64,000 bases of DNA from an uncultured Bacteroidota bacterium (GTDB lineage: Bacteria > Bacteroidota > Ignavibacteria > Kryptoniales > JAKASW01), in contig OY969800.1 of the NCBI GenBank assembly GCA_963703215.1, forward strand, positions 582,007 to 646,006. Reading direction: 5' to 3'. Every line of letters begins with the position of its first letter. Positions within the stretch are counted from its first letter, which is position 1. Both the position numbers and the translations under genes were made by a program. Of the stretch, positions 5,170 to 40,634 are shown piece by piece. The notes below the pieces were generated by a model. That model was given only the letters and a program-made list of their open reading frames with translations. It was not told the origin of the DNA and searched no databases.

Positions 5170-5696
5170 TGTTTTCCCCTGACCTCTCGATTGAAGCAAC
5201 AATTGATTTGAATATCTAAAATCTCTGTGGTCGGTTCCTGTTTCAAAAGTTCGCTCTCGAGAGAGTTAAGCATATCGAGCTGCGCAGTAAGAATCGTCCG
5301 AATCGTTTTTACCATTGTCTCTCTGAGATTTTTTACCTCAGCAAGTTTCGATTTTGCCCGTACCATTTCCTGAGTTGCTTCGTTCAAAATCTGCTGCGCT
5401 TTGACCTCCGCTTCGTGCTCGACAATCTTTGAAGTTCTCCTCAACGACTCGCTGGATTCCGACGCCGCTCTCTCCGCCTGAGTTACGAGAGAACGAAGCG
5501 AATCTTCCATTTTCTTATAATTTTGGAGTTCGTCTGTCAGAACCGTCTTCTGAACGCGGAGCTCCATATTTTCTTTGAGCAATTCCTCGAAGTCGGAAGC
5601 GACGGTGGTAAGAAAAGCCTCAACTTCTTCGGGATCGAATCCGCGCATCTTCTTGGCGAATTCCTGCTTTCGAATTTGAATGGGGGTAAGTCTCAT
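5145..5696 (-). CDS. DivIVA-domain protein
   Basis: The N-terminus is [27 protein letters not shown], followed by coiled coil. The last ~25 codons overlap the PNP start region. Confidence 0.8.
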
Positions 5697-12236: not shown

Positions 12237-13646
12237 TCATTGTGTCAGATATTGCTGCCAGTTGTCGTCGTGGATTTCTTTGTGTTCGGTGGAGTTGACC
12301 AGAGAATAGTCGCCAAACCCTGTCCGATCCACGAAGTCGAAACTCACCCCACCTTCTAATGAATTGTAGGTCCAGATCTCATAAGGTTTAGAATCGGTTT
12401 CGTTTGGATGCCGGTCGATCTCGTCGGGATTGCCGTACAGCACGTAAACTCTCCCACGATCTGTCTTCCAGCCGTCTCTCATCCCCGCTCTAAAATGGTC
12501 GTTCGCGTACGCGATGCGTTCCAAGTATTGGGACCTCGCGTCGCCGCTTTTTGAAACCTCATCGGATTTTCTCTTATTCCAAAAATCGTAAAGAAATTGG
12601 CGCTTCGAATCGACGGTAGTGAGTTTTTCGTAACGGTTGCGCTCCTCAGTGCTCGAGATATAACGTGCCTCCGCAAATTCCTTATCAAGTTGATCTTTCC
12701 CCATCGTTGTGTAAACAGAAGAGAGAATTGCGCTTCCCGTAATGGTGGTGTCAGGCGATTCGGGTTTTCCGAGATTCGGATTATAGATAAAAAATTTCCT
12801 CGAAGATACCGCATATAGATTCACAGCAGAATCGACTACAGTGTAAGTGAAAGTATAAGCCCCGGTCTTGAGATTCGATCCGTTAATCGTTCCAACCTCC
12901 ACACTTGAGTTGCCAAATTTCTCCCTCGCCCTGTAAGAACTCTTGCGCACCTGTCCGTAGCTGTCGCGGATTTCATAACCCGCGGTAAACGAGCTGTCTC
13001 CAGCTCCCGGAGGAATGTTATACACCTCCAAGTAATAATAAATAATTGGCATACCGAGTCCGTATATTGCCGTTGGGTTGGGAATCACGTCGTAGGTGTT
13101 CTTGTAAAAGATGCCGCTTCCATTTCCTTTCGTAATCGTTGAGCATAATTCGATCCCACTCATCTCCAGTTTATCGCTATTATAAGAGGGAATCGGAATA
13201 GCTGAGATGAGACTATCGGCGTTAAGGGAGTTATTCATGTCAACGCATCTAACGACCAGACTATAATTTCCCGGAAACAATAGAAAATCTATTTTACCTA
13301 CGAGATTCTTACGGATATATTCCTGAGTCGTATCCGTGATCGCCACCGGAGTTTTCCATGCCTGCCGCGCTGCGATCGAATCAACCTTCCTGATCGAGAC
13401 ATCAAACAACAGTGAGTCAGTAAAACTTAATGCCCGCGCAGTATCATGATTGACAGTTCTCGTGAAATGCAGAGTGCTCGTGTTGAAACTGTAATAAAAC
13501 TCAGCGTAGGTTCTTGCAGAATCATATCGAAACGTAGCGTAGTCAAAGTTTACGTTTAATCCCTGCGCCAGAACCGGATGTGAAATTACGATCAAAGAAA
13601 ATATGCAGTAGAGCGATGTTCTTAGCTCAATAAAAAATGATCTCAT
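12237..13646 (-). CDS. GWxTD-domain protein
   Basis: 469 aa with a signal peptide and the C-terminal motif GWKTDRGRVYVLYGNPDEIDRH. Confidence 0.75.
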   Translation of the reverse strand: MRSFFIELRTSLYCIFSLIVISHPVLAQGLNVNFDYATFRYDSARTYAEFYYSFNTSTLHFTRTVNHDTARALSFTDSLLFDVSIRKVDSIAARQAWKTPVAITDTTQEYIRKNLVGKIDFLLFPGNYSLVVRCVDMNNSLNADSLISAIPIPSYNSDKLEMSGIELCSTITKGNGSGIFYKNTYDVIPNPTAIYGLGMPIIYYYLEVYNIPPGAGDSSFTAGYEIRDSYGQVRKSSYRAREKFGNSSVEVGTINGSNLKTGAYTFTYTVVDSAVNLYAVSSRKFFIYNPNLGKPESPDTTITGSAILSSVYTTMGKDQLDKEFAEARYISSTEERNRYEKLTTVDSKRQFLYDFWNKRKSDEVSKSGDARSQYLERIAYANDHFRAGMRDGWKTDRGRVYVLYGNPDEIDRHPNETDSKPYEIWTYNSLEGGVSFDFVDRTGFGDYSLVNSTEHKEIHDDNWQQYLTQ

Positions 13647-31210: not shown

Positions 31211-32203
31211 TCACCGGCTCCACGCTTTTTCGTAACTGCTTCGAGTCTGTTCACTCATCATTTCCTCATAGCTTTTACGTTCAGCCTGATAAAACACACC
31301 GACTGGAGTCGGGAAGCCTTGCCTTTCGCTGAACGTGGCAAGTAATACCGCGAGGTCAAGCGAAGATTCATCGTAAACCAGAACATCGCTGATGCTCCAT
31401 TTGCCGTCTTTCAACGAGACAACTTCAGGAGTGAAGACATTTAACCTTATTCCTTTGTCGTTCTCTTTTCCGAAAACCAATGATTTCCCGTGTTCAAGGT
31501 AGACGACGTTATCCGGTTTCGTTTCCTTCTCGGTCAGCAATTCAAACGCGCCGTCATTGAAAACGTTGCAGTTCTGGTAAATCTCGATGAAGGCCGTTCC
31601 ACGATGCTTTGCCGCACGGAGCAGAATTTGCTGAAGATGTTTCGGGTCTCTGTCCATCGACCGGGCCACGAAGGTCCCCGCTGCACCAAGCGCGAGTTGA
31701 ACCGGATTAAACGGGTAATCGACCGTTCCGTACGGCGTGGACTTCGTCTTCTTGCCGAGCTCTGAGGTCGGCGAATACTGACCTTTGGTCAATCCATAAA
31801 TCCTGTTGTTGAACATAAGTATCTTGAGTCCGATGTTGCGACGCAGAGCATGGATGAAGTGGTTTCCGCCAATCGAGAGCGCATCGCCATCTCCGGTTGC
31901 TACCCAGACGGTCAAATCTGGATTTGCTGTTTTAACTCCCGTGGCAATCGCTGGAGCACGTCCGTGTATTCCATGAATTCCGTAGGCCTCCATGTAATAC
32001 GGAAAGCGACTCGAACAGCCGATTCCTGAAACGAATACATGTTTTTCCTTCGGTACGTCCAGTTCCGGTAGAATTCTCTGAACCTGGGCGAGGATCGAAT
32101 AATCACCGCAGCCAGGGCACCATCTTACATCCTGATCTGACGAAAAATCTTTCGCAGTATATTTCTTAACCTGAATCTCACCATTTCCACCAGTCGTAGC
32201 CAT
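31211..32203 (-). CDS. korB: 2-oxoglutarate/2-oxoacid:ferredoxin oxidoreductase, beta subunit
   Basis: 330 aa with WCPGCGDYS and the TPP-binding motif GDGDALSIGGNH. Confidence 0.9.
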   Translation of the reverse strand: MATTGGNGEIQVKKYTAKDFSSDQDVRWCPGCGDYSILAQVQRILPELDVPKEKHVFVSGIGCSSRFPYYMEAYGIHGIHGRAPAIATGVKTANPDLTVWVATGDGDALSIGGNHFIHALRRNIGLKILMFNNRIYGLTKGQYSPTSELGKKTKSTPYGTVDYPFNPVQLALGAAGTFVARSMDRDPKHLQQILLRAAKHRGTAFIEIYQNCNVFNDGAFELLTEKETKPDNVVYLEHGKSLVFGKENDKGIRLNVFTPEVVSLKDGKWSISDVLVYDESSLDLAVLLATFSERQGFPTPVGVFYQAERKSYEEMMSEQTRSSYEKAWSR

Positions 32204-32235
32204 TATCTAACACCTCATAATTTTATTTTGGCTTC

Positions 32236-32311
32236 TTTTTTCCCGCTCATTATTGCAATTGTGATTTGCGGGATGCCGCAAAGCGGCACATTTCATGCGC
32301 CTTGCGGCTCA
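32236..32311 (-). repeat. structured intergenic repeat, copy 1 (between korA and korB)
   Basis: Shares a module order and two helices with the copies at ~35012-35095 and ~38374-38461. Helices are TGCCGC/GCGGCA and TCCCGC/GCGGGA. Confidence 0.7.
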
Positions 32312-34132
32312 GTATGCATCTTTGATTGCTTTTTCTAATTCGTTCGATCTAATTGGCAAACCTCTCACCTTGTTGAATTGAATAACCGGGATGAGGAATT
32401 CGCTCTTCAAAAGTTTTGCCAGCTGCCCGAGATTAATTTCGGGCACGAGAACCTTCTTAAAATTTTTCAGAACGCCTCCGAGATTTCTCGGGAATGGATT
32501 TAAGTAGCGGAGATGCGCGTGAGACACCTTATGGTGCGACTTGCGCAATCTCTCGACAGTCGATCGAACCGCACCGAAAGTTCCGCCCCAGCTTACAACA
32601 AGCAGCTCACCACTTTCCTCACCAAATACTTCCTGCAACGGAATATCCTTCTCGATGCCTTTGACTTTCTCGGCTCTCAAGTGCACCATGACATCGTGGT
32701 TGTCAGGATCATAGCTGACGTTGCCGGTGATATTTTGTTTCTCAAGACCACCGATTCTGTGCTCAAGTCCCGGGACTCCGGGGATTGCCCACGGTCTTAC
32801 ATTGTTTTCATTTCGAGAATACGGCTGAAAATTTTCCGGATCAGTCCGGAAATGGACGGGAATTCCCGCAAGATCCTTCGCATCAGGGACGAGCCATGGC
32901 TCGCTTCCGTTTGCAAGATAACCATCGGTGAGCAAATAAACCGGCGTCATGTATTTCACCGCTATTCTCGCAGCTTCGTACGCCATGTTGAAGCAATCCG
33001 CCGGCGTTGCAGCCGCAATGACAGGAGCAGGAGCTTCTCCATGACGACCGTAAATCACGAACAATAAATCCGACTGCTCGGTCTTTGTCGGCAAACCTGT
33101 AGAAGGTCCGCCGCGCTGCACATCCACTATGATCATTGGCAGTTCCAGCATAATACCAAGGCTGATCGTTTCGGATTTGAGCGCTGCACCAGGGCCGCTC
33201 GTTCCAGTGACTGCCAGGTTCCCGGCGTAAGAAGAACCTAAAGCCGCTCCAGCTGCCGCAATTTCGTCCTCTGCTTGAAATGTTTTTACTCCGAAATTCT
33301 TATACACCGATAAATTATGAAGGATGTCGCTCGCAGGAGTGATCGGATAGCTCGCATAATAAAGTGGTATTCCTGCTTTCTGCGATGCTGCGACGAGACC
33401 GAGAGCCGTCGCTTCGTTTCCAGTGATGTTTCTGTACAAACCCGGTTTCAATTGCGCTGGTTTTACTTCGAACCTCGATGCAAAAGCTTCCGTTGTATCA
33501 CCATAGTAGTAACCGGCTTTCAAAGCCTTGAGATTGGCTTCGGCAATTTTCGGTTCTTTGCCGAATTTCTCCTGGATCCATTCCTCAGTCGCTTCTGTTG
33601 TGCGAGAATACATCCAGTACATCAAGCCAAGAGCGAAGAAGTTTTTGCAGCGAACCATTTCCTTCTGAGTAAGTCCGATTCCCTGCAGTGCATTCAAGGT
33701 TAACTTCGTAATCGGGACATCGATAACTCGATAATTGGCAAGCGCGCCATCCGTCAATGGGTTTGCCTTGTATCCTGCAAGCTCGAGATTCTTATCGTCG
33801 AACGAATCCGTGTTAGCAAGAATCAATCCGCCTGTCTTCAAATCTTTCAGATGGACCTTCAACGCGGCTGGATTCATCGCGACGAGAACATCAGGATGAT
33901 CGCCGGGAGTCAGAATATCCCAGCTTGAAAAGTGAAGCTGGAAACTTGAAACGCCGAACAACGTTCCGGCAGGAGCCCTGATCTCTGCAGGATAATCCGG
34001 AAGCGTGCTAAGATCATTTCCGGCAAGCGCAGTTGTGTTCGTAAACTGCATGCCTGTCAACTGCATCCCATCACCCGAATCACCTGCAAATCGAATCACG
34101 ACATCATCTAATATTTCCGTCTTCTTACTCAT
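32309..34132 (-). CDS. korA: 2-oxoglutarate/2-oxoacid:ferredoxin oxidoreductase, alpha subunit
   Basis: 607 aa with a fused gamma/alpha-type architecture, directly upstream of korB. Confidence 0.9.
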   Translation of the reverse strand: MSKKTEILDDVVIRFAGDSGDGMQLTGMQFTNTTALAGNDLSTLPDYPAEIRAPAGTLFGVSSFQLHFSSWDILTPGDHPDVLVAMNPAALKVHLKDLKTGGLILANTDSFDDKNLELAGYKANPLTDGALANYRVIDVPITKLTLNALQGIGLTQKEMVRCKNFFALGLMYWMYSRTTEATEEWIQEKFGKEPKIAEANLKALKAGYYYGDTTEAFASRFEVKPAQLKPGLYRNITGNEATALGLVAASQKAGIPLYYASYPITPASDILHNLSVYKNFGVKTFQAEDEIAAAGAALGSSYAGNLAVTGTSGPGAALKSETISLGIMLELPMIIVDVQRGGPSTGLPTKTEQSDLLFVIYGRHGEAPAPVIAAATPADCFNMAYEAARIAVKYMTPVYLLTDGYLANGSEPWLVPDAKDLAGIPVHFRTDPENFQPYSRNENNVRPWAIPGVPGLEHRIGGLEKQNITGNVSYDPDNHDVMVHLRAEKVKGIEKDIPLQEVFGEESGELLVVSWGGTFGAVRSTVERLRKSHHKVSHAHLRYLNPFPRNLGGVLKNFKKVLVPEINLGQLAKLLKSEFLIPVIQFNKVRGLPIRSNELEKAIKDAY

Positions 34133-34887
34133 TCGTGTTCCCTCTTGTTAATTGCTTTCACGACAGACTCGTTGAGAAATGGAAACCATTTCGCGAAATA
34201 ACCGGAAAGCACCGTTAGATTGTTCGTCATTATCAAAATTCCAACTATTACCAACAAAACTCCACCCGTAACTTCGACCCACCTGATGTATTTACTAAAT
34301 TTCCTGAAGAAGCCAAGAAATGCATTGATGCTCAGACTCGTCACAAGAAATGGTATTCCCAGTCCGAGCGAGTAGACTGAAAGAAGGAGAATTCCTTTTC
34401 CGATTGTGTTCTGTTGAGCCGCAATCGCAAGTATTGCGGCAAGAACCGGACCTATGCACGGCGTCCATCCGAAAGCAAAAGCAAGTCCCGCAACAAATGA
34501 ACCGAGAAAACCGATCTTCTTTCCTGTGTGAAACTTCTTCTCATAGTTGAGGAATCTTATCTTGAACACCCCGGTCATGTGAAGGCCAAAAATAATAATT
34601 ATCAATCCTGCAATCTTCGAAAACATGTTCAGCTTCTGAAGAAGAAATTGTCCGACTGCTGTCGCTGATGCACCGAGCGCGACGAAGATAACCGAGAATC
34701 CTAGTACAAAGAGAACAGAATTCAAGGTCACTTTCTTGAACAGATCCGATCGTGCACTGTTCATCATCTCATCGAAACTGTAACCGCTGATGAATGACAG
34801 ATACCCTGGCACTATCGGCAGAACACACGGCGATATAAAGGAAATTATTCCGAAAACAAACGCCGTGAGGATGCTTACATTTTCCAC
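34129..34887 (-). CDS. ccdA: cytochrome c biogenesis / thiol-disulfide transporter CcdA (DsbD family)
   Basis: 252 aa, polytopic, with SPCVLPIVPGYLSF and TPCIGPVL Cys motifs. GTG start; 4-nt overlap with korA. Confidence 0.85.
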   Translation of the reverse strand: MENVSILTAFVFGIISFISPCVLPIVPGYLSFISGYSFDEMMNSARSDLFKKVTLNSVLFVLGFSVIFVALGASATAVGQFLLQKLNMFSKIAGLIIIIFGLHMTGVFKIRFLNYEKKFHTGKKIGFLGSFVAGLAFAFGWTPCIGPVLAAILAIAAQQNTIGKGILLLSVYSLGLGIPFLVTSLSINAFLGFFRKFSKYIRWVEVTGGVLLVIVGILIMTNNLTVLSGYFAKWFPFLNESVVKAINKREHE

Positions 34888-34908
34888 TATCTTCTCTTCA
34901 TTAAGTTA

Positions 34909-34931
34909 CATTTGTGCTTAGAGCAGCTCAT
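34909..34931 (-). repeat. partial copy (5' module only) of the structured intergenic repeat
   Basis: The minus strand reads ATGAGCTGCTCTAAGCACAAATG, compared with ATGAGCTGTAAAGCACATGATG in copy 3. Confidence 0.45.
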
Positions 34932-35011
34932 GAATCATCTACTTAATGAGACGTCATACGCGGCACTATGGTTCAGTCCGCACAATGATGTCCTATTCCG
35001 CCAATTATTCT

Positions 35012-35095
35012 ACTTTTCCCGCCCATCATTATTCAAATAGGATATGCGGGATGCCACAATGCGGCACTTTTTCTCATCGTGTGCCTTAGGGCTCA
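35012..35095 (-). repeat. structured intergenic repeat, copy 2 (starts inside the last codons of rplI)
   Basis: Has the same modules. Helix 1 is TGCCGC/GTGGCA (G.U in the minus-strand RNA) and helix 2 is TCCCGC/GCGGGA. Confidence 0.7.
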
Positions 35096-35538
35096 TTCTG
35101 CTTCCTGACCGACACGTTGATCTCGGCGGCAACTTGCTGGTGGAGCTTTAGAGGAACCTTGTACTCTCCAAGCGACTTGATCGGTTCAGCCAGATCAATT
35201 CGCCTGCGATCGATTTCGAATCCCTTCTCTGCAAGCTTATCAGCAATCATCTGCGAAGTGACAGAGCCGAACAGTTTATCTTCTTCACCAGCTTGAACTT
35301 CAAGCGTGATTTCAACGCCATTGAGTTTCTCCGCAACAGACTGAGCGTCATGAATCTCGCGGTTCATTTTCGCCTGGTAGGCTTTCTTCTCGTTTTCGAT
35401 CAGCTTCATGTAGCCTGGCGCATACGGATAAGCGACTTTCTGCGGGATCAAAAAATTCCGCGCATATCCGTCCCGCACATCGACGACTTTTCCTATTTCG
35501 CCGAGTCCTTCATAGTTCTTTCTAAGTATTACTTTCAT
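35086..35538 (-). CDS. rplI: 50S ribosomal protein L9
   Basis: 150 aa starting MKVILRKNYEGLGEIGKVVDVRDGYARNFLIP. Confidence 0.95.
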   Translation of the reverse strand: MKVILRKNYEGLGEIGKVVDVRDGYARNFLIPQKVAYPYAPGYMKLIENEKKAYQAKMNREIHDAQSVAEKLNGVEITLEVQAGEEDKLFGSVTSQMIADKLAEKGFEIDRRRIDLAEPIKSLGEYKVPLKLHQQVAAEINVSVRKQNEP

Positions 35539-35618
35539 ATAAACTCCTTAAGAGCAGTGATTACCTTTTGGCAATTAATTTTTGGCTAAACCCAACAACT
35601 TACAGCGAACGGCTGCCG

Positions 35619-35855
35619 TTATCTGATTATGTCTGAAACAAACGGCAGTAACGCGAGATGACGCGCTCTCTTAATTGCGAGCGCAAGCTGGCGCTGATGC
35701 TTGGCGCAGGTTCCTGTCACCCGGCGAGGAATAATTTTTCCTTGCTCCGAGGTAAACTTGATAATGCGTTTGTCATCTTTGTAATCGACGTAAACGTCTC
35801 CGTTCTCACAAAACCTGCAGACTTTTCTTTTCTTTATTTCTTTGACTGGTACCAC
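35619..35855 (-). CDS. rpsR: 30S ribosomal protein S18
   Basis: 78 aa with CRFC...IDYKD...PRRVTG.CAKHQR. Confidence 0.95.
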
Positions 35856-35904
35856 AATTATTCCACCTTTTTTTTAGTTGTATCCCGCCAGAAGCGAATG
35901 CATT

Positions 35905-36417
35905 TTACTTACTCACTAATTCCTGTCGAGACTGAAGATTTTGGACCTCAGCACTGCCATTTTGTTTAAGCATATTCGATTCTTCATTCGACAAAAAACG
36001 GTCGAAAGAATCATCTGTGAATGACGATGGCTCTTCTTCCGTTTGACCCTCGTGAACATCAGTGAAGTGAACTTGCCTGTTGAGAAATTGTATTCTCCTC
36101 GCTTTGATCTCCACGATGGACCGGTTATGACCGTCCTCGGTTTTCCAATTTCGACTCTGGAGCGTGCCGTCAACTAAAACGGCATTCCCCTTTTTCAATC
36201 TGTCACGGCAACTGTCGGCAAGCTTGTTCCACGCAACGATACCGATATAACAAACATCCTCCTGCCATTGGTTTCCACCGTCACGAAACCTTCTGTTGGA
36301 AGCGACCGTGAAATTTACCACTGGAGTGCCGCTCATCGTCTGACGAAAAACCGGATCCCTCGTAAGGTTTCCGGCAATTATGACGCTATTCATCTCAGGC
36401 ATCTTTAGATCGGCCAT
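35905..36417 (-). CDS. ssb: single-stranded DNA-binding protein (lacks the canonical acidic C-terminal tip)
   Basis: OB fold (NSVIIAGNLTRDPVFRQT...GTPVVNFTVA). ATG 36417 is preceded by GGAGG. The gene lies between rpsF and rpsR. Confidence 0.85.
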   Translation of the reverse strand: MADLKMPEMNSVIIAGNLTRDPVFRQTMSGTPVVNFTVASNRRFRDGGNQWQEDVCYIGIVAWNKLADSCRDRLKKGNAVLVDGTLQSRNWKTEDGHNRSIVEIKARRIQFLNRQVHFTDVHEGQTEEEPSSFTDDSFDRFLSNEESNMLKQNGSAEVQNLQSRQELVSK

Positions 36418-36491
36418 GAATCCTCCCTCAATCCTTCCTTGCGGACGGCTTCCATTCATCGAGAAACCGCCGGCTTGCCTTGCTCAATGAT

Positions 36492-36896
36492 TTATCTCCC
36501 ATTGTGATCTTTTTCAGTCATAGCCGTTCCAATGTCAGTCTGCTCCGTCCTCGAGACCCGCTGGCGGCGCCGTTTCTTGATGCCCGCCCGTGCTTTCAGC
36601 ATGTTCTTGTCGACTACGACTGTCAAATGGCGAATAACATCCTCATCAAGCTTGAACACTTGCTCCAGCTTGGAAACGATATCGGTCGGCGACTTATGCA
36701 GCAGTTGGACATAGAAGCCTGCGTTTTTCTTCTTGATGGGATATGCAAGACGCCGTCTTCCCCAGCGATCCGCATTTGTCACTTCGCCACCGTTCTTTGA
36801 TATAAATTCCTGGTAGCGTCCAATTACAGTCTCGACCTGACTATCTTCGAGATTGGAATTTACAATGAAAGTTGTCTCATATTCACGTTGAACCAT
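36492..36896 (-). CDS. rpsF: 30S ribosomal protein S6
   Basis: 134 aa starting REYETTFIVNSNLEDSQVE. Confidence 0.93.
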   Translation of the reverse strand: MVQREYETTFIVNSNLEDSQVETVIGRYQEFISKNGGEVTNADRWGRRRLAYPIKKKNAGFYVQLLHKSPTDIVSKLEQVFKLDEDVIRHLTVVVDKNMLKARAGIKKRRRQRVSRTEQTDIGTAMTEKDHNGR

Positions 36897-36974
36897 ATTC
36901 AGCTTACTTCACCTCCTTATCAGGAAATTGTAAATTTTAAATGTTGAATTTTAAATTTCATTTTGAATTCAAAA

Positions 36975-36995
36975 TTGAGAATCAAAAATTCTCAA
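36975..36995 (-). terminator. AT-rich hairpin plus T-run directly after the pth stop
   Basis: TTGAGAAT / ATTCTCAA, an 8-bp stem with a 5-nt loop, is followed on the minus strand by TTTTG. Confidence 0.5.
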
Positions 36996-36996
36996 G

Positions 36997-37566
36997 CTAG
37001 TTAAACCTATTCATCACAGTTTCGATTCCTTCGTTGATAAAACCAAACACCGCGTCGGCGGCGTTCTTCACCATTTTTTTTACCTCTGGGATTTCTTCCC
37101 CGTCAAATTTAGAAAGAACAAAATCCGCCATGTCTCTTCCTGGTACAACCTCATCGGTTCCGATACCACACCTAAGCCGCGGGAAGCCATCGTCATTCAA
37201 ATGATAAATGATCGAATAAACTCCGTTGTGTCCACCGTCGCTTCCACCTTTTCTGAGGCGAAGCTTGGCGAACGGGATATTGAAGTCGTCATGCACAACC
37301 AATAGATCTTCCAGTTGAATGCCAAATCTGTCAACTGCATCTTCGACAGCGATGCCGCTGTTGTTCATGAATGTCGTGGGCTTCAACAGAACGACATCTT
37401 CACCAGCGTGATAGATTTCTGCGAAGAAATATTCCCCTTTGCCAGGAGAAAACGCCTTTCTCACTTTCGAGGAAACTTCGTCAACGACCATGAAGCCGAC
37501 ATTGTGACGAGTCCCTTCATACTCCCGTCCGACATTTCCCAATCCGACAATCATTTTCACACTCAC
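36997..37566 (-). CDS. pth: peptidyl-tRNA hydrolase
   Basis: IVGLGNVGREYEGTRHNVGF. The true start is possibly the GTG at 37560 or the ATG at 37554. Confidence 0.93.
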   Translation of the reverse strand: MSVKMIVGLGNVGREYEGTRHNVGFMVVDEVSSKVRKAFSPGKGEYFFAEIYHAGEDVVLLKPTTFMNNSGIAVEDAVDRFGIQLEDLLVVHDDFNIPFAKLRLRKGGSDGGHNGVYSIIYHLNDDGFPRLRCGIGTDEVVPGRDMADFVLSKFDGEEIPEVKKMVKNAADAVFGFINEGIETVMNRFN

Positions 37567-37644
37567 CGAGTCATGATCCTGAGCGCAACAACCAGCATTT
37601 AACTATTAGCGTGGAGCTAAAGGCTAAGAGCTAACGGCCGATTG

Positions 37645-38364
37645 CTACTTCTTTTCCTTTTCCTTCTCTTTCTCTTTTTCCTTAGGCTTCTCTTTATCTT
37701 TGGGCTTCTCGCCTTCTTCTGCCTCTTCGCCTTCCTCAGCCTTCTTCGTCTTGCCGATGACTTCGGGCTCTGTCGGCTCCTCAGCAGCAGCCACAGCAGC
37801 TTCAGGAGTCTCTTCTTTGATCGTAGGCGGCGGAACAACGGTGACGATCGCCGATTCTGGATTGTCGAGAATCTTTACCCCTTCTATCTTTACATCTTTT
37901 ATGTGAATCGAATCCGCGATGCCGAGTTCATCGACTTTGATTTCTATACGTTCTGGTACTTGCTCCGGATCGCACTGAATTCTAATTCTGTGAATCGAAT
38001 GCTGGACTATACCGCCGTCCTTCACACCCTTCGGCGTTCCGACAAGCTGGACAGGAACCTGAACAGTTATCTTCTGGCCTTCCTTAATTCCATGCAGGTC
38101 GAAGTGTAATATCTTTCCAACGACCGGATCAAACTGCACGTCGTTCAAAATAGCCCTTCGCTCGGTTCCATCTTGGAATTTTACCCTTATCAGGTGGGTC
38201 GCATGCGATGTTACGAGACCGCGAACTGGTGCCTCGTCGGCCTGTACAACCACATTCTCGGTTCCAAGATAAAACACGCCGGGCACCTTTTTATCTGCGA
38301 AAAGTCTCTTCGATTTCTTACCCCTCAAAGTCCTTTTCTCAACATTCAAAACAACTTCTTCCAT
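37645..38364 (-). CDS. rplY: 50S ribosomal protein L25 / general stress protein Ctc with a Lys/Glu-rich tail
   Basis: 239 aa with an L25 N-terminal domain and a Ctc beta-domain. The tail is KPKDKEKPKEKEKEKEKEKK. Confidence 0.9.
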   Translation of the reverse strand: MEEVVLNVEKRTLRGKKSKRLFADKKVPGVFYLGTENVVVQADEAPVRGLVTSHATHLIRVKFQDGTERRAILNDVQFDPVVGKILHFDLHGIKEGQKITVQVPVQLVGTPKGVKDGGIVQHSIHRIRIQCDPEQVPERIEIKVDELGIADSIHIKDVKIEGVKILDNPESAIVTVVPPPTIKEETPEAAVAAAEEPTEPEVIGKTKKAEEGEEAEEGEKPKDKEKPKEKEKEKEKEKK

Positions 38365-38373
38365 AATTATCCT

Positions 38374-38461
38374 CGCTTTCCCGTTCTAATACTAAGTAAA
38401 ATCGACGATACGGGATGCCGCACAACGCGGCACTTTCTCACATCATGTGCTTTACAGCTCA
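38374..38461 (-). repeat. structured intergenic repeat, copy 3 (between prs and ctc)
   Basis: Has the same modules. Helix 2 is TCCCGT/ACGGGA, a double compensatory change relative to copies 1 and 2. Confidence 0.7.
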
Positions 38462-38470
38462 TTTCTTCCT

Positions 38471-39403
38471 CTACTTAATTTCAAATAATGAACTAATTGA
38501 TTCGTTCTGATAAGTTCTTCTGATCGCTTCCGCAAAAAGTTTTGCCACGGATCGCACCTCAATTTTCTCCGATTGCCGCTTCAAAGGCACTGTATCGCTG
38601 ACAATGAGTTTCTTGATCGGGCTGCTATTAATTTTTTCGAATGCGTTTCCGCTGAAAACCGGATGCGTACAAGCTCCATAAACGTCAGCAGCGCCCGCCG
38701 TCTTCAGAGCGTTTACCGCGGCGACAAAAGTCCCGCCTGTATCGATCAGGTCATCCACGATCAAAACATTCTTGCCCTTCACATCTCCGATAATATTTAC
38801 GACCTCAGCAACGTTTGCCTTCGGCCTGCGTTTGTCGATCAAAACTAAATCTGCCTCGAGTCGTGTCGCGTAAGCTCTCGCAAATTTTATCCCGCCTACA
38901 TCCGGCGACACAACTACTAAATTCGGAACTTTCAAATCTTTAATATATCTGACAAAGACTGCCGATGAGTAAAGGTGATCTACAGGGATATCGAAGAAAC
39001 CTTGAATCTGAGCCGCATGCAAATCCATCGTCAGCACACGGTCAACGCCAGCATGAGTCAACAGATTCGCAATAAGTTTTGACGAGATGGCAACTCGCGG
39101 TTGATCCTTTCTGTCCTGGCGCGCATATCCGAAATATGGAATCACACCGGTCACTCTCAACGCCGATGCTCGCTTGGCGGCGTCGATCATGATCAGCAGC
39201 TCCATCAAGTTCTCCGCCGGGGGAAATGTGCTCTGAATTATGAACACATCTGCACCACGGATGTTATCGGAGTACTTCACCCAGATCTCGCCATCACTAA
39301 AATTCACAATCTCTCTTTCTCCGAGAGGTTCACCTATTTCATGCGCAATCTTTTCCGCAAGCGGAATATTGCTGCGACCGGAAAATATTTTTATGCCTGC
39401 CAT
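38471..39403 (-). CDS. prs: ribose-phosphate pyrophosphokinase
   Basis: 310 aa with DLHAAQIQGFF, VVSPDVGG and DDLIDTGGT. Confidence 0.95.
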   Translation of the reverse strand: MAGIKIFSGRSNIPLAEKIAHEIGEPLGEREIVNFSDGEIWVKYSDNIRGADVFIIQSTFPPAENLMELLIMIDAAKRASALRVTGVIPYFGYARQDRKDQPRVAISSKLIANLLTHAGVDRVLTMDLHAAQIQGFFDIPVDHLYSSAVFVRYIKDLKVPNLVVVSPDVGGIKFARAYATRLEADLVLIDKRRPKANVAEVVNIIGDVKGKNVLIVDDLIDTGGTFVAAVNALKTAGAADVYGACTHPVFSGNAFEKINSSPIKKLIVSDTVPLKRQSEKIEVRSVAKLFAEAIRRTYQNESISSLFEIK

Positions 39404-39554
39404 CTTGGATTATGATTTTTTTGCGGCAAGGATTCTCTGCAGTGAAGAATTTGGATTTTCCCGACAAATTCAAAACTCCGTCAGGATTGCCTTGCCGATC
39501 AGATAATCGATCTCAGACTTGTTAGTTAAAAAACTCTATAGCGAACTCAAGCTC

Positions 39555-39596
39555 GCTCATCTATGCTGGGGCGGCAGGATTCGAACCTACGAGTGT
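39555..39596. repeat. direct repeat copy A (tRNA-Gln 3' half + CATAG + ATGAGC)
   Basis: Matches 39861-39902 at 41 of 42 nt; the repeat period is 306 nt. Confidence 0.9.
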
Positions 39597-39633
39597 CCCG
39601 CAAAGCGGGATGCCTTACCACCGGGTCACGCCA
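39566..39633 (-). pseudogene. tRNA-Gln-derived tRNA-like relic (copy 2) with a rebuilt anticodon hairpin
   Basis: The T-arm and 3' acceptor are intact. The 5' acceptor/D region is shortened and mismatched. The anticodon arm is TCCCG-CTTTG-CGGGA with a 5-nt loop. The GIY-YIG stop codon overlaps it. Confidence 0.7.
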
Positions 39634-39860
39634 ACAATTTCTAGAAACTTTGCAGTACCTTTGAGATTCTTCAATTCTCGTTCGCGTCTCATAGCCTCTG
39701 CACGTTTCTCGTATTTTTCAAAATAAACCATCGACCATGGCGCAAATGCCTTCGTCGATTTCGCTCTACCTTCGTTGTGTCTCCTAAGCCTGTCTGCCAA
39801 ATTGTTTGTCTGGCCTACGTAAAATCTTTTTACCTTCAGACTTTTAAGCACATACACGTA

Positions 39861-39866
<6 letters not shown>
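39615..39866 (-). CDS. small standalone GIY-YIG nuclease (COG2827/YhbQ-like)
   Basis: 83 aa with YVYVL...FYVGQTNNLADRLRRHN...RERELK. These are the GIY, YIG, Arg and Glu signature positions. Confidence 0.8.
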
Positions 39867-39943
<77 letters not shown>

Positions 39944-39980
39944 ATTCTGGGACAACCACAAACTTGAGGCATGTCAACAT

Positions 39981-40041
39981 CGGCATTTGAACCTGCGAGT
40001 GTCCCGCAAAGCGGGATGCCTAACCACTTGGCTACGCCCCA
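39981..40041 (-). pseudogene. tRNA-Gln-derived tRNA-like relic (copy 3), 3' end decayed
   Basis: The 5' acceptor, D-arm and variable loop are intact. It has the same TCCCG-CTTTG-CGGGA arm as copy 2. The T-stem 3' strand and acceptor are lost (GGTTCAAATGCCGATG). Confidence 0.65.
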
Positions 40042-40185
40042 ATTCATCAACCTTTCAAAGATTGCGACGCTTGGGATACGCCAAGTACACCTGTTTACAG
40101 CGTCGTGGCTTAGAATATAGTTGTCGAGAAGGAGAAAATCAAAGCGGAAGACCGGATCAAACTCAAATTTCCAACAAATACGTCT

Positions 40186-40494
40186 TCAGATTCCTCGAGT
40201 TTTATCGGACATTCTTGAATCCGTCCAGTTCCACCATTTCAATCTTTCCGGATGCTGAGAAGACCTTTCTGTCGAGGCATAATAGACCGCACATCTGAAA
40301 ACGTAATGAAGGTATCTGTCCTGAACGAAACCAGTCTTTTTATTAATTAGGCCATAAAGAGTCTCGGGATTTTTCCCCTTCAGATCTTTGACTGATTTGA
40401 TTCCAATCTTAAGAAAATCTAAAGCGATTGATTTTCCAACACCCGGGATTTGCTTAAGGTCTCTAATGGAATTTTCGTCGACCTTCACGCTCAA
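40186..40494 (-). CDS. helix-hairpin-helix domain protein (Cdd1-like)
   Basis: 102 aa with LKQIPGVGKSIALDF. Confidence 0.55.
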   Translation of the reverse strand: MSVKVDENSIRDLKQIPGVGKSIALDFLKIGIKSVKDLKGKNPETLYGLINKKTGFVQDRYLHYVFRCAVYYASTERSSQHPERLKWWNWTDSRMSDKTRGI

Positions 40495-40634
40495 CCTCAG
40501 ACATATTGATCCATAAAGTTACTGATGAATGTATCCTGCATAATTCAAAAAACAAATTTACAAATGCGAATCTTGCCGCCCAATTGTAACAAGAAGACTT
40601 TTGGCTTATCTTTTAGAAAGAAAGAGGAAATATA

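Follow-up and report, generated by a model that had tools for sequence, protein, structure and literature searches.

Three repeat copies in housekeeping operons

The DNA considered here is a stretch of 64,000 nucleotides (the window) from an uncultured Bacteroidota bacterium (Ignavibacteria, Kryptoniales; GenBank assembly GCA_963703215.1, contig OY969800.1, positions 582,007 to 646,006). Three copies of a hairpin-forming repeat lie in the same orientation, on the minus strand, within 6.2 kb of its housekeeping operons: at the korA|korB junction, at the rplI|ccdA junction, and between prs and ctc. These repeats are very likely copies of a small nonautonomous mobile DNA element of Candidatus Kryptoniota. 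The three full copies listed in the preliminary description of this DNA were all recovered. The pattern GTGCCGC-N3-7-GYGGCATCCCG has three matches in the window and none in 100 shuffles, and covariance models of the family (that of the core run with filters off) detect only the same three copies in the 64 kb, at 55–77 bits, the next-best match (15 bits) lying within coding sequence.

Alignment of filled with empty sites defines a long form of 96–100 nt, composed of (A)AUGAGCC-P0, UGA..AAG, a core, and AAA(N0-8)GGUAGAAUAAUU. The core contains two adjacent helices, helix 1 (P1) and helix 2 (P2), both of which had been predicted and do exist. The 5′ module is the hairpin P0, in which UGAGCY and RGCRCA enclose a GNRA-like loop (GCAA, CUAA, or GUAA) with an internal A.A or A.G mismatch. 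The motif previously proposed for this end is correct, except that its spacer is NN rather than NNN (TGAGCY-NN-AARGCRCA), and the pattern as first written matches nothing. P0 is roughly complementary to helix 1, with which it pairs in the minimum-energy fold of copy 1, and from its sequence it looks like a degenerate copy of that helix. The alternative GGCRC/GTGCC pairing described earlier is real and is no more than a reflection of this likeness. The window copies also share a conserved 3′ tail (consensus GGTAGAATAATT), which follows the core in L003/L006, L036, L039, and L030 as well (loci fetched from other genomes are referred to by such numbers). Copies differ by 0–8 nt in the length of the A-run that separates GGGA from GGTAGAAT.

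Copy 1 (32221–32311, minus strand, like all copies and their parts) has an uncertainty of at most 5 nt at its 5′ boundary (CATAC, 32312–32316). Its P0 hairpin, UGAGCC-GCAA-GGCGCA (32296–32311), opens with the three nucleotides that serve as the korA stop codon; its core (32241–32288), matched by the covariance model at 67 bits, comprises P1, UGCCGC-UUU-GCGGCA (32274–32288), and P2, UCCCGC..GCGGGA (32241–32273); and its A-rich tail AAAAAGAAGCCAAAATAAAA (32221–32240) reads GTTAGAATAATT in the orthologous copy of L022. Copy 2 (35002–35097; 96 nt, boundaries ±1) lies within the last codons of rplI. The loop of its P0, UGAGCC-CUAA-GGCACA (35080–35095), holds the new rplI stop codon TAA, its core (35017–35066; 73–77 bits) consists of P1 (35052–35066) and P2 (35017–35051), and its tail is AAAGTAGAATAATT(G) (35002–35016). 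Copy 3 (38365–38464; about 99 nt) separates the Shine-Dalgarno sequence of ctc from the ctc ATG. Its P0, UGAGCU-GUAA-AGCACA (38446–38461), has U-A in place of the C-G pair of copies 1 and 2, and its core (38379–38432; 55 bits) combines a P1 with a 5-nt loop (38416–38432) and a P2 of the form UCCCGU..ACGGGA (38379–38415). The tail AAGCGAGGATAATT (38365–38378) supplies the GAGGA ahead of the ctc ATG, where L022 has GGTAAGATAATC. The G.U pair reported for P1 of copy 2 and the double change reported for P2 of copy 3 were both found as described.

Empty orthologous sites in relatives

Relatives were found through L25 homologs, and their contigs were compared with the window. Four of them (L018–L021; L25 86–88% identical) have the same gene order, prs-ctc-pth-rpsF-ssb-rpsR-rplI-ccdA-korA-korB, with all three sites empty: korA and korB overlap, no element is present at rplI|ccdA, and the prs|ctc spacer is 8–11 nt long. 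The empty prs|ctc site, also present in L023 (a 90% relative), reads GAGGAAGCA|ATGG. The 95% relative L022 has filled korA|korB and prs|ctc sites and shares with L018–L021 an empty rplI site, AAGCA(A/G)|GCGGA(G/A)TAG. Two models run over the 82,826 bases of the four empty-site relatives gave no convincing match, the best (20 bits) falling in the prs leader. The empty orthologous sites in relatives indicate, on sequence comparison, that the window copies are lineage-specific insertions of about 96–100 nt, in agreement with the earlier view of repeats inserted between co-oriented genes; by the same comparison, copy 2 is judged to be the youngest of the three.

The insertions have changed the genes around them. 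The korA product is 607 aa long here and 611 aa in the relatives, four codons having been lost and the TGA of copy 1 acting as stop codon, and the korA/korB overlap is broken. Copy 2 replaces the last two codons of rplI, so that ribosomal protein L9 now ends ..KQNEP* inside the element. A relic of the original gene end with its stop codon (GCG GAA TAG, 34993–35001, minus strand), which aligns with the ..GCGGA(G/A)TA(G/A) gene end of L022 and L018, is stranded downstream. Copy 3 starts 10 nt past the prs stop codon and splits the ribosome-binding site of ctc from its ATG, displacing the Shine-Dalgarno sequence by about 100 nt. At all three sites, the new stop codon or the new purine-rich sequence before the ATG is derived from the element. 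The earlier statement that the copies begin at or near upstream stop codons holds.

The core unit in other genomes

A pattern scan of one genome per species, extended by a metagenome scan that added further copies, found the core in Candidatus Kryptoniota and in metagenome-assembled genomes labeled “Bacteroidetes bacterium.” Because most copies outside the window have no P0, the core is the common unit of the family. Model searches of the fetched loci revealed more divergent copies adjoining the first ones, including a variant with the stem types swapped (GUCCCGC/GCGGGAU, then GCCGC/GCGGC), variants with a 12-bp helix 1, and a 44-nt mini form. The interior of P2 falls into several unrelated subfamilies. 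The window copies are 70–80% identical to one another, and each is 85–88% identical to copies in other genomes; the higher identity across genomes argues that several sublineages coexist across genera. Copies are clustered, with three in 6.2 kb of the window, four in 1.4 kb of L002, and four in 0.6 kb of L037. Neither a copy nor a Y1 transposase partner was found in viral contigs. GC-rich pattern matches in L007, L027–L029, L033, and L035 scored about 30 bits or less on GC-rich contigs and were taken as chance, and L003 (“Acidobacteriaceae”), in which the element and the sequence around it are the same as in L006, is probably a binning artifact.

The core is found within other sequences as well as between genes. 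In L002, a single IS21 insertion sequence with istA and istB carries four insertions, a canonical sense copy, an antisense variant, and two 44-nt minis, three being sense and one antisense. When the insertions are removed, single continuous Pfam matches to IstB_IS21 (1–235 of 238 profile positions) and Mu-transpos_C_2 are restored. One of the istA insertions is 51 nt long and in frame. The core also adjoins an IS3 orfB. On a metagenome contig (L024, Ga0326727_10020720), a 51-nt copy at 5562–5612 lies in frame in birA, between GILLE and VVLGIGLN, and translates roughly as HRAAGSRVSYFDSNERD. These insertions in IS21, beside IS3, in birA, and in a 210-nt repeat described below imply that the family lands wherever it is tolerated. 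The preliminary description had set its repeats apart from ordinary miniature inverted-repeat transposable elements (MITEs) and repetitive extragenic palindromic (REP) sequences, which occur in both orientations or inside genes. Precisely such copies were found: the four in istA/istB, the in-frame one in birA, and copies that run antisense to both of their neighboring genes.

In two different organisms (L005, 5848–5910; L032, 3026–3088), the element directly precedes prmC, whose only in-frame start is the AUG of the element (AAUGAGCGGGAAAAAA, giving MSGKK..). From these sequences, part of helix 2 appears to have become the 5′ end of prmC. A perfect 14-bp hairpin, GUUCUUUCCUUUGU-loop-ACAAAGGAAAGAAC, is found directly 5′ of the core in L001 (7815–7850), L025, L037, and L038, with compensatory differences between loci, and an inverted variant core follows about 120 nt downstream of this module, which gives mosaics of palindromic modules like bacterial interspersed mosaic elements (BIMEs). 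In the genome MFD01828.bin.1.43, a 1.34-kb segment is duplicated with 99.6% identity (L004, 801–2139; L010, 129–1467). It is bracketed by 135-nt direct repeats and contains a small toxin-antitoxin-like gene pair and a repeat of roughly 210 nt with 13-nt inverted ends (AGTGTCCTAATTT..AAATTAGGACACT) and the core in its middle. An rRNA operon was considered as the larger repeat of this genome and discarded, as no rRNA was found there.

Boundaries and insertion target

The ends of the core are fixed to the base by eight intact IstA homologs, which read ..EAAFWKE.. and ..AGKKVW.., together with intact IS21 DNA in L040. The four empty IS21 sites in L040 are GGCAA(A/G)|AAAGTC, CCAG|AA(G/C)G (in element orientation), CTTC|CAGG, and C(A/C)GA|CTGG, and a further pair of empty and filled sites (L038/L037 vs. 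L025) gives TTAAG|AAAC. The mobile unit defined by these comparisons is 44–54 nt long and consists of exactly two adjacent hairpins, whose GC stems are almost the same, 5′-[U GCCGC-loop-GCGGC A][U CCCGC-AU-rich 20–27 nt-GCGGG A]-3′, from the opening U of helix 1 to the closing A of helix 2.

The insertion point falls after the G of a purine-rich target, (A)AG|AA. The sequence AG|AA is found in all three independent filled/empty pairs (CAAG|AAAG, CCAG|AACG, and TTAAG|AAAC), and at positions −3 and −2, which are outside the search pattern, 20 of 22 independent copies have an A in each case. The conserved AAG ahead of the unit and the AAA behind it are thus target DNA and lie outside the element. 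The loop sequence of P1, CUU, complements the target AAG; no covariation with flank variants was seen.

No consistent target-site duplication was found in five short-form and three long-form comparisons of filled with empty sites; apparent matches of 2–9 nt at the long-form junctions were dismissed as duplications or inverted repeats, being inconsistent between sites. Terminal inverted repeats are likewise absent, the ends UGCCGC.. and ..GCGGGA being the feet of two hairpins, and the long-form ends AAUGAGCC.. and ..GAAUAAUU are unrelated to each other. The only 13-nt inverted repeat is the one around the 210-nt composite repeat of a single genome. With neither terminal inverted repeats nor a target-site duplication, the element lacks the marks of a classical MITE derived from a DDE transposon.

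Orientation and genomic context

Among the intergenic copies with callable neighbors, 13 have the same direction as both genes, 2 run against both, and 2 are mixed. The window contains AAGAA twice and AAGAAA three times as often in the sense as in the antisense direction (2:1 and 3:1), in coding and intergenic sequence alike, and this asymmetry of the AAG|AA target alone predicts the sense bias of the copies. Ribosome-binding regions and Lys-Lys codons typically contain purine-rich AAG/AAA runs, which fits the location of copies near starts and stops. For GC skew, the orientations of replication and transcription are confounded.

The neighboring genes have no functional theme in common (clpP|clpX, tetR|hlyD, extracytoplasmic function sigma factor|anti-sigma factor, cimA|leuA, prmC). 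A regulon of the kind expected for a riboswitch was not found, the genes downstream of the copies being unrelated: korB, ccdA, ctc, hlyD-like, prmC, glmM-like, czcD-like, clpX, leuA, and an anti-sigma factor gene.

Conservation and folding of the hairpins

In an alignment of 31 distinct sequences, which were partly selected by the search pattern, 98.9% of the cells are paired. Double changes were observed in three pairs, the swapped P1/P2 stem types included, and the length of P1 varies; 8 of the 12 pairs never vary. The hairpins are real, and their covariation is real but modest. On the sense strand, two of 353 cells are G.U and none is an A.C pair. The folding z-scores of the gene strand (−0.95 to −3.8) and of the opposite strand (−1.8 to −2.8) are similar. 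The earlier claim that the fold is specific to the RNA of the gene strand is therefore not sustained: it depends on 2 G.U of 353 cells, the z-scores of both strands are alike, and the target predicts the sense bias.

No Rfam family was matched at gathering score by the window and 10 loci, and at E ≤ 10 over 31500–40500 the only Rfam matches were tRNAs, so that the family stays outside the known RNA families, as first thought. Neither hairpin has a U-tract behind it (P2 comes after P1, and AAA after P2), a terminator scan calls neither, and the previous conclusion that the repeat is not a plain terminator stands. A promoter scan was at background level (9 found vs. 8.3 expected). Two further candidates were set aside. 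Copies 2 and 3 have open reading frames (ORFs) from the element ATG, the frame of which shifts with the P1 loop length, and none is conserved as a small peptide. By inspection, a hammerhead would need a stem II between GAUGA(G) and GAAA and a K-turn a GA after a 3-nt bulge, and neither is there.

Other features of the window

A fourth, half copy had been described at 34909–34931 (minus strand). It is not a member of the family, as the same stretch is present in element-free relatives. The sequence around it, upstream of ccdA (34895–34940, minus strand), is conserved among relatives and resembles a sigma-70-type promoter (TTGAAC/TTGACA, 17 nt, TAACTT; TTGACA-17-TAACTT in L020 and L021), which suggests that Kryptoniota may use classical −35/−10 promoters and not the Bacteroidota type.

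The tRNA-Gln gene of the window (39871–39943, minus strand) is flanked by two partial tRNA-Gln-like copies (about 39985–40045 and 39555–39632), in both of which the hairpin UCCCGC-UUU-GCGGGA takes the place of the anticodon arm. An ORF for an 83-aa GIY-YIG nuclease (39615–39866) lies between the tRNA-like copies, its last codons being within the second. The same arrangement is found in L018 and L042 with other hairpins (UCCCGAU..AUCGGGA and UCCCGAC..GUCGGGA), and L019–L022 have the tRNA only. These hairpin types match P1/P2 variants, which could be due to chance or could be a lead to the mobilizing enzyme. An origin of the core from tRNA was considered on account of a 10-mer, GGCAUCCCGC, shared with the tRNA-like copies at 39.6 and 40.0 kb; with model scores of 10–14 bits, it is regarded as a lead only.

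Upstream of prs, a structured leader (39404–39505, minus strand) is conserved in seven relatives. The leader is closed by the helix GCAAGG/CCUUGC and contains two hairpins, a variable one of the UCC(C/U)GAC..GUCGGGA type and a conserved one, AUUCUC/GAGAAU, in which one pair is compensatory. No Rfam match to this leader was obtained, and it may be an undescribed cis-regulatory RNA of phosphoribosyl pyrophosphate synthetase. In L018, L019, and L021 (about 12370–12750), rpsR is uncalled between ssb and rplI, rpsF is 72–96 aa long vs. 134 aa in the window, and the pth|rpsF spacers are 150–280 nt vs. 100 nt in the window, with a match to neither model. These oddities may be gene-calling problems or other insertions.

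Discussion

The evidence presented here points to mobile DNA, and probably not to a dedicated regulatory RNA. We found no description of this family in the literature, and we regard it as a new family of miniature hairpin mobile elements, which by analogy would work like REP/REPIN sequences or IS200/IS605 derivatives, membership in either not being claimed. The long form has landed three times in the housekeeping operons of the window, and the elements would be passively cotranscribed with their host operons after insertion, their hairpins perhaps altering mRNA stability or translational coupling incidentally. Mobilization would occur in trans, by an enzyme that recognizes folded hairpins in single-stranded DNA. 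The clustering of copies could be explained if insertions leave A-rich flanks that recreate targets. Retention of copies at the same site in different organisms suggests occasional exaptation; a role at the RNA level is not needed to explain the data.

Among known systems, REP, REPIN, and BIME sequences, which depend on Y1 HUH transposases known as REP-associated tyrosine transposases (RAYTs), are similar in being short GC-rich palindromes, mostly intergenic near stop codons and cotranscribed (PMC3116915; PMC3333891). They too occur as single copies, inverted pairs, and mosaic clusters (here L025, L030, and L037), compensatory changes keep their hairpins intact, and several subfamilies of REPINs persist across related genomes (PMC3116915). 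REP sequences are imperfect palindromes of 20–40 nt that start with a conserved GTAG-like tetranucleotide, and their genomes carry a RAYT gene, which the repeats typically flank. In contrast to REP sequences, the Kryptoniota unit, although palindromic, has no conserved 5′ GTAG-type tetranucleotide, the AAG ahead of it belonging to the target; it is built of two different adjacent hairpins rather than a REP doublet, has a defined AAG|AA target, and often inserts into coding sequence and insertion sequences.

Y1 HUH transposases of the IS200/IS605 group and RAYTs are reported to bind to hairpins and to insert beside a short target, which is not duplicated (PMC3201880; PMC5027513; PMC3333891). 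Similarities of the Kryptoniota family to IS200/IS605 include the absence of terminal inverted repeats and of target duplication, precise and oriented insertion by a short target, hairpins at the ends, and strand bias. We infer that the Kryptoniota hairpins likewise act as single strands. In elements of the IS200/IS605 type, hairpins are subterminal, and internal guide sequences serve to recognize cleavage sites that lie at a distance. The differences are that the Kryptoniota hairpins are terminal rather than subterminal, that the target is conserved on both sides, and that the unit is only 44–54 nt long. No tnpA/tnpB partner with these ends was found in the 383 kb of Kryptoniota loci. Gene-less derivatives of IS200/IS605 are known as palindrome-associated transposable elements and, in cyanobacteria, as Nezha-type elements. 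A “peel-and-paste” transposase of the HUH/Y1 type, as in IS200/IS605 or RAYTs, is by this analogy the best, though tentative, candidate for the mobilizing enzyme, and one that may well turn out to be wrong.

Other small repeats are less similar. Rickettsia palindromic elements (RPEs) are 100–150 bp long and mostly intragenic, and they can be in frame and translated. The Kryptoniota family has in common with them small palindromic elements translated in frame (copies of 51 nt in both birA and istA) and differs in being mostly intergenic, in its defined target, and in its sequence, which has no known similarity to that of RPEs. Elements of the Correia and RUP types carry terminal inverted repeats and duplicate a TA, and BOX and ERIC are not known to have a defined insertion target. 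Pneumococcal BOX, Neisseria Correia, and enterobacterial ERIC elements are, like the present family, modular (here P0, core, tail, and 14-bp module) and form stable RNA hairpins in transcription units; they are not known to have any sequence in common with it.

Several observations weigh against mobile DNA of this kind. Neither a Y1 transposase nor a RAYT was detected in 383 kb of Kryptoniota DNA by tblastn with an IS200 TnpA and a RAYT sequence as queries. The unit ends exactly with its hairpins, and conservation of the target extends to either side of the insertion point; in IS608, the hairpins are reported to be subterminal, with cleavage at some distance (PMC3201880). Target positions −1, +1, and +2 were constrained by the retrieval pattern, and the evidence for them is limited to the three empty-site pairs; the 44-nt mini form uses other flanks, TTC|CAGG and CGA|CTGG. 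The long form does not end in hairpins, and its junctions are ambiguous by 2–5 nt, so that insertion by hairpin ends does not account for how the long form moves as a whole. Finally, copies at the same site in different organisms, at prmC (L005 and L032) and in the group of L001, L025, L037, and L038, are compatible with a local function.

Such a function is central to the improbable alternative that the repeat is a selected cis-acting RNA module, retained in the sense direction at gene junctions because it protects mRNA, provides processing sites, or uncouples the translation of cistrons. Most intergenic copies are indeed sense to both neighbors, 7–34 nt past a stop codon and 11–190 nt ahead of a start codon. 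The sense strand, on which the stems are maintained, contains two G.U pairs and no A.C pair, and different organisms have retained some copies at the same site. In L005 and L032, prmC appears to start at the AUG of the element, and GAGGA has been gained by the tail of copy 3 ahead of the ctc ATG. However, the same operons in relatives are entirely without the element, copies are also found in the antisense direction and within IS21, birA, and another repeat, the asymmetry of the target motif matches the sense bias, z-scores are alike on both strands, and 8 invariant pairs of 12 point to recognition of sequence and not of structure alone. The core could also be a new structured noncoding RNA or self-cleaving ribozyme carried on mobile DNA, in favor of which are the lack of an Rfam family match and the conservation of some unpaired nucleotides beside the helices (AU following the 5′ strand of P2 and AAUGA preceding its 3′ strand). 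We give this reading hardly any credence, given that the conserved AAG and AAA flanks are target DNA, the P2 interior splits into unrelated subfamilies, inspection revealed no hammerhead or K-turn geometry, and the element tolerates in-frame translation in birA and istA.

A site acting at the DNA level, be it a portable promoter, a terminator, or an array of four GCGG(C/G)A half-sites to which a host protein binds, is very unlikely. The four alternating half-sites are nearly invariant, and copy 2 and L030 hold TTGAAT/TTGATA-17/18-TAGAAT across the P2 loop and tail, but promoter-like spacing is missing in most copies, in which the A-run varies by 0–8 nt, the promoter scan is at background, and there is no U-tract 3′ of the hairpins. 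A terminator between korA and korB or ahead of ctc would be harmful, and the compensatory changes and variable loops favor folded single strands over duplex half-sites. There is a small chance that the enzyme belongs to a class new to such transposition, for which the small stand-alone GIY-YIG nuclease of the window is a lead, or that domestication has turned the unit into a portable RNA module. In the latter case, it may bring stop codons in all frames at its 5′ end and a ribosome-binding tail at its 3′ end, and operons may tolerate or exploit its insertion.

Understood as a mobile element of Kryptoniota, a unit of 44–54 nt is among the smallest with base-precise, target-specific, and duplication-free insertion. 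Its host phylum is known only from metagenomes, and nothing is known of the mobile DNA in it. Essential operons survive its insertion at stop codons, at overlapping gene junctions, and in the gap between ribosome-binding site and ATG. Gene ends (korA and rplI), gene starts (prmC), and in-frame segments (birA) are partly derived from the element, which affects assemblies and gene callers. If the enzyme is found through its association with the hairpins, it would represent a compact, sequence- and structure-specific system of single-strand DNA insertion; and if a new enzyme class or a domesticated module is involved, the family would be a new kind of minimal, target-specific, duplication-free mobile element.

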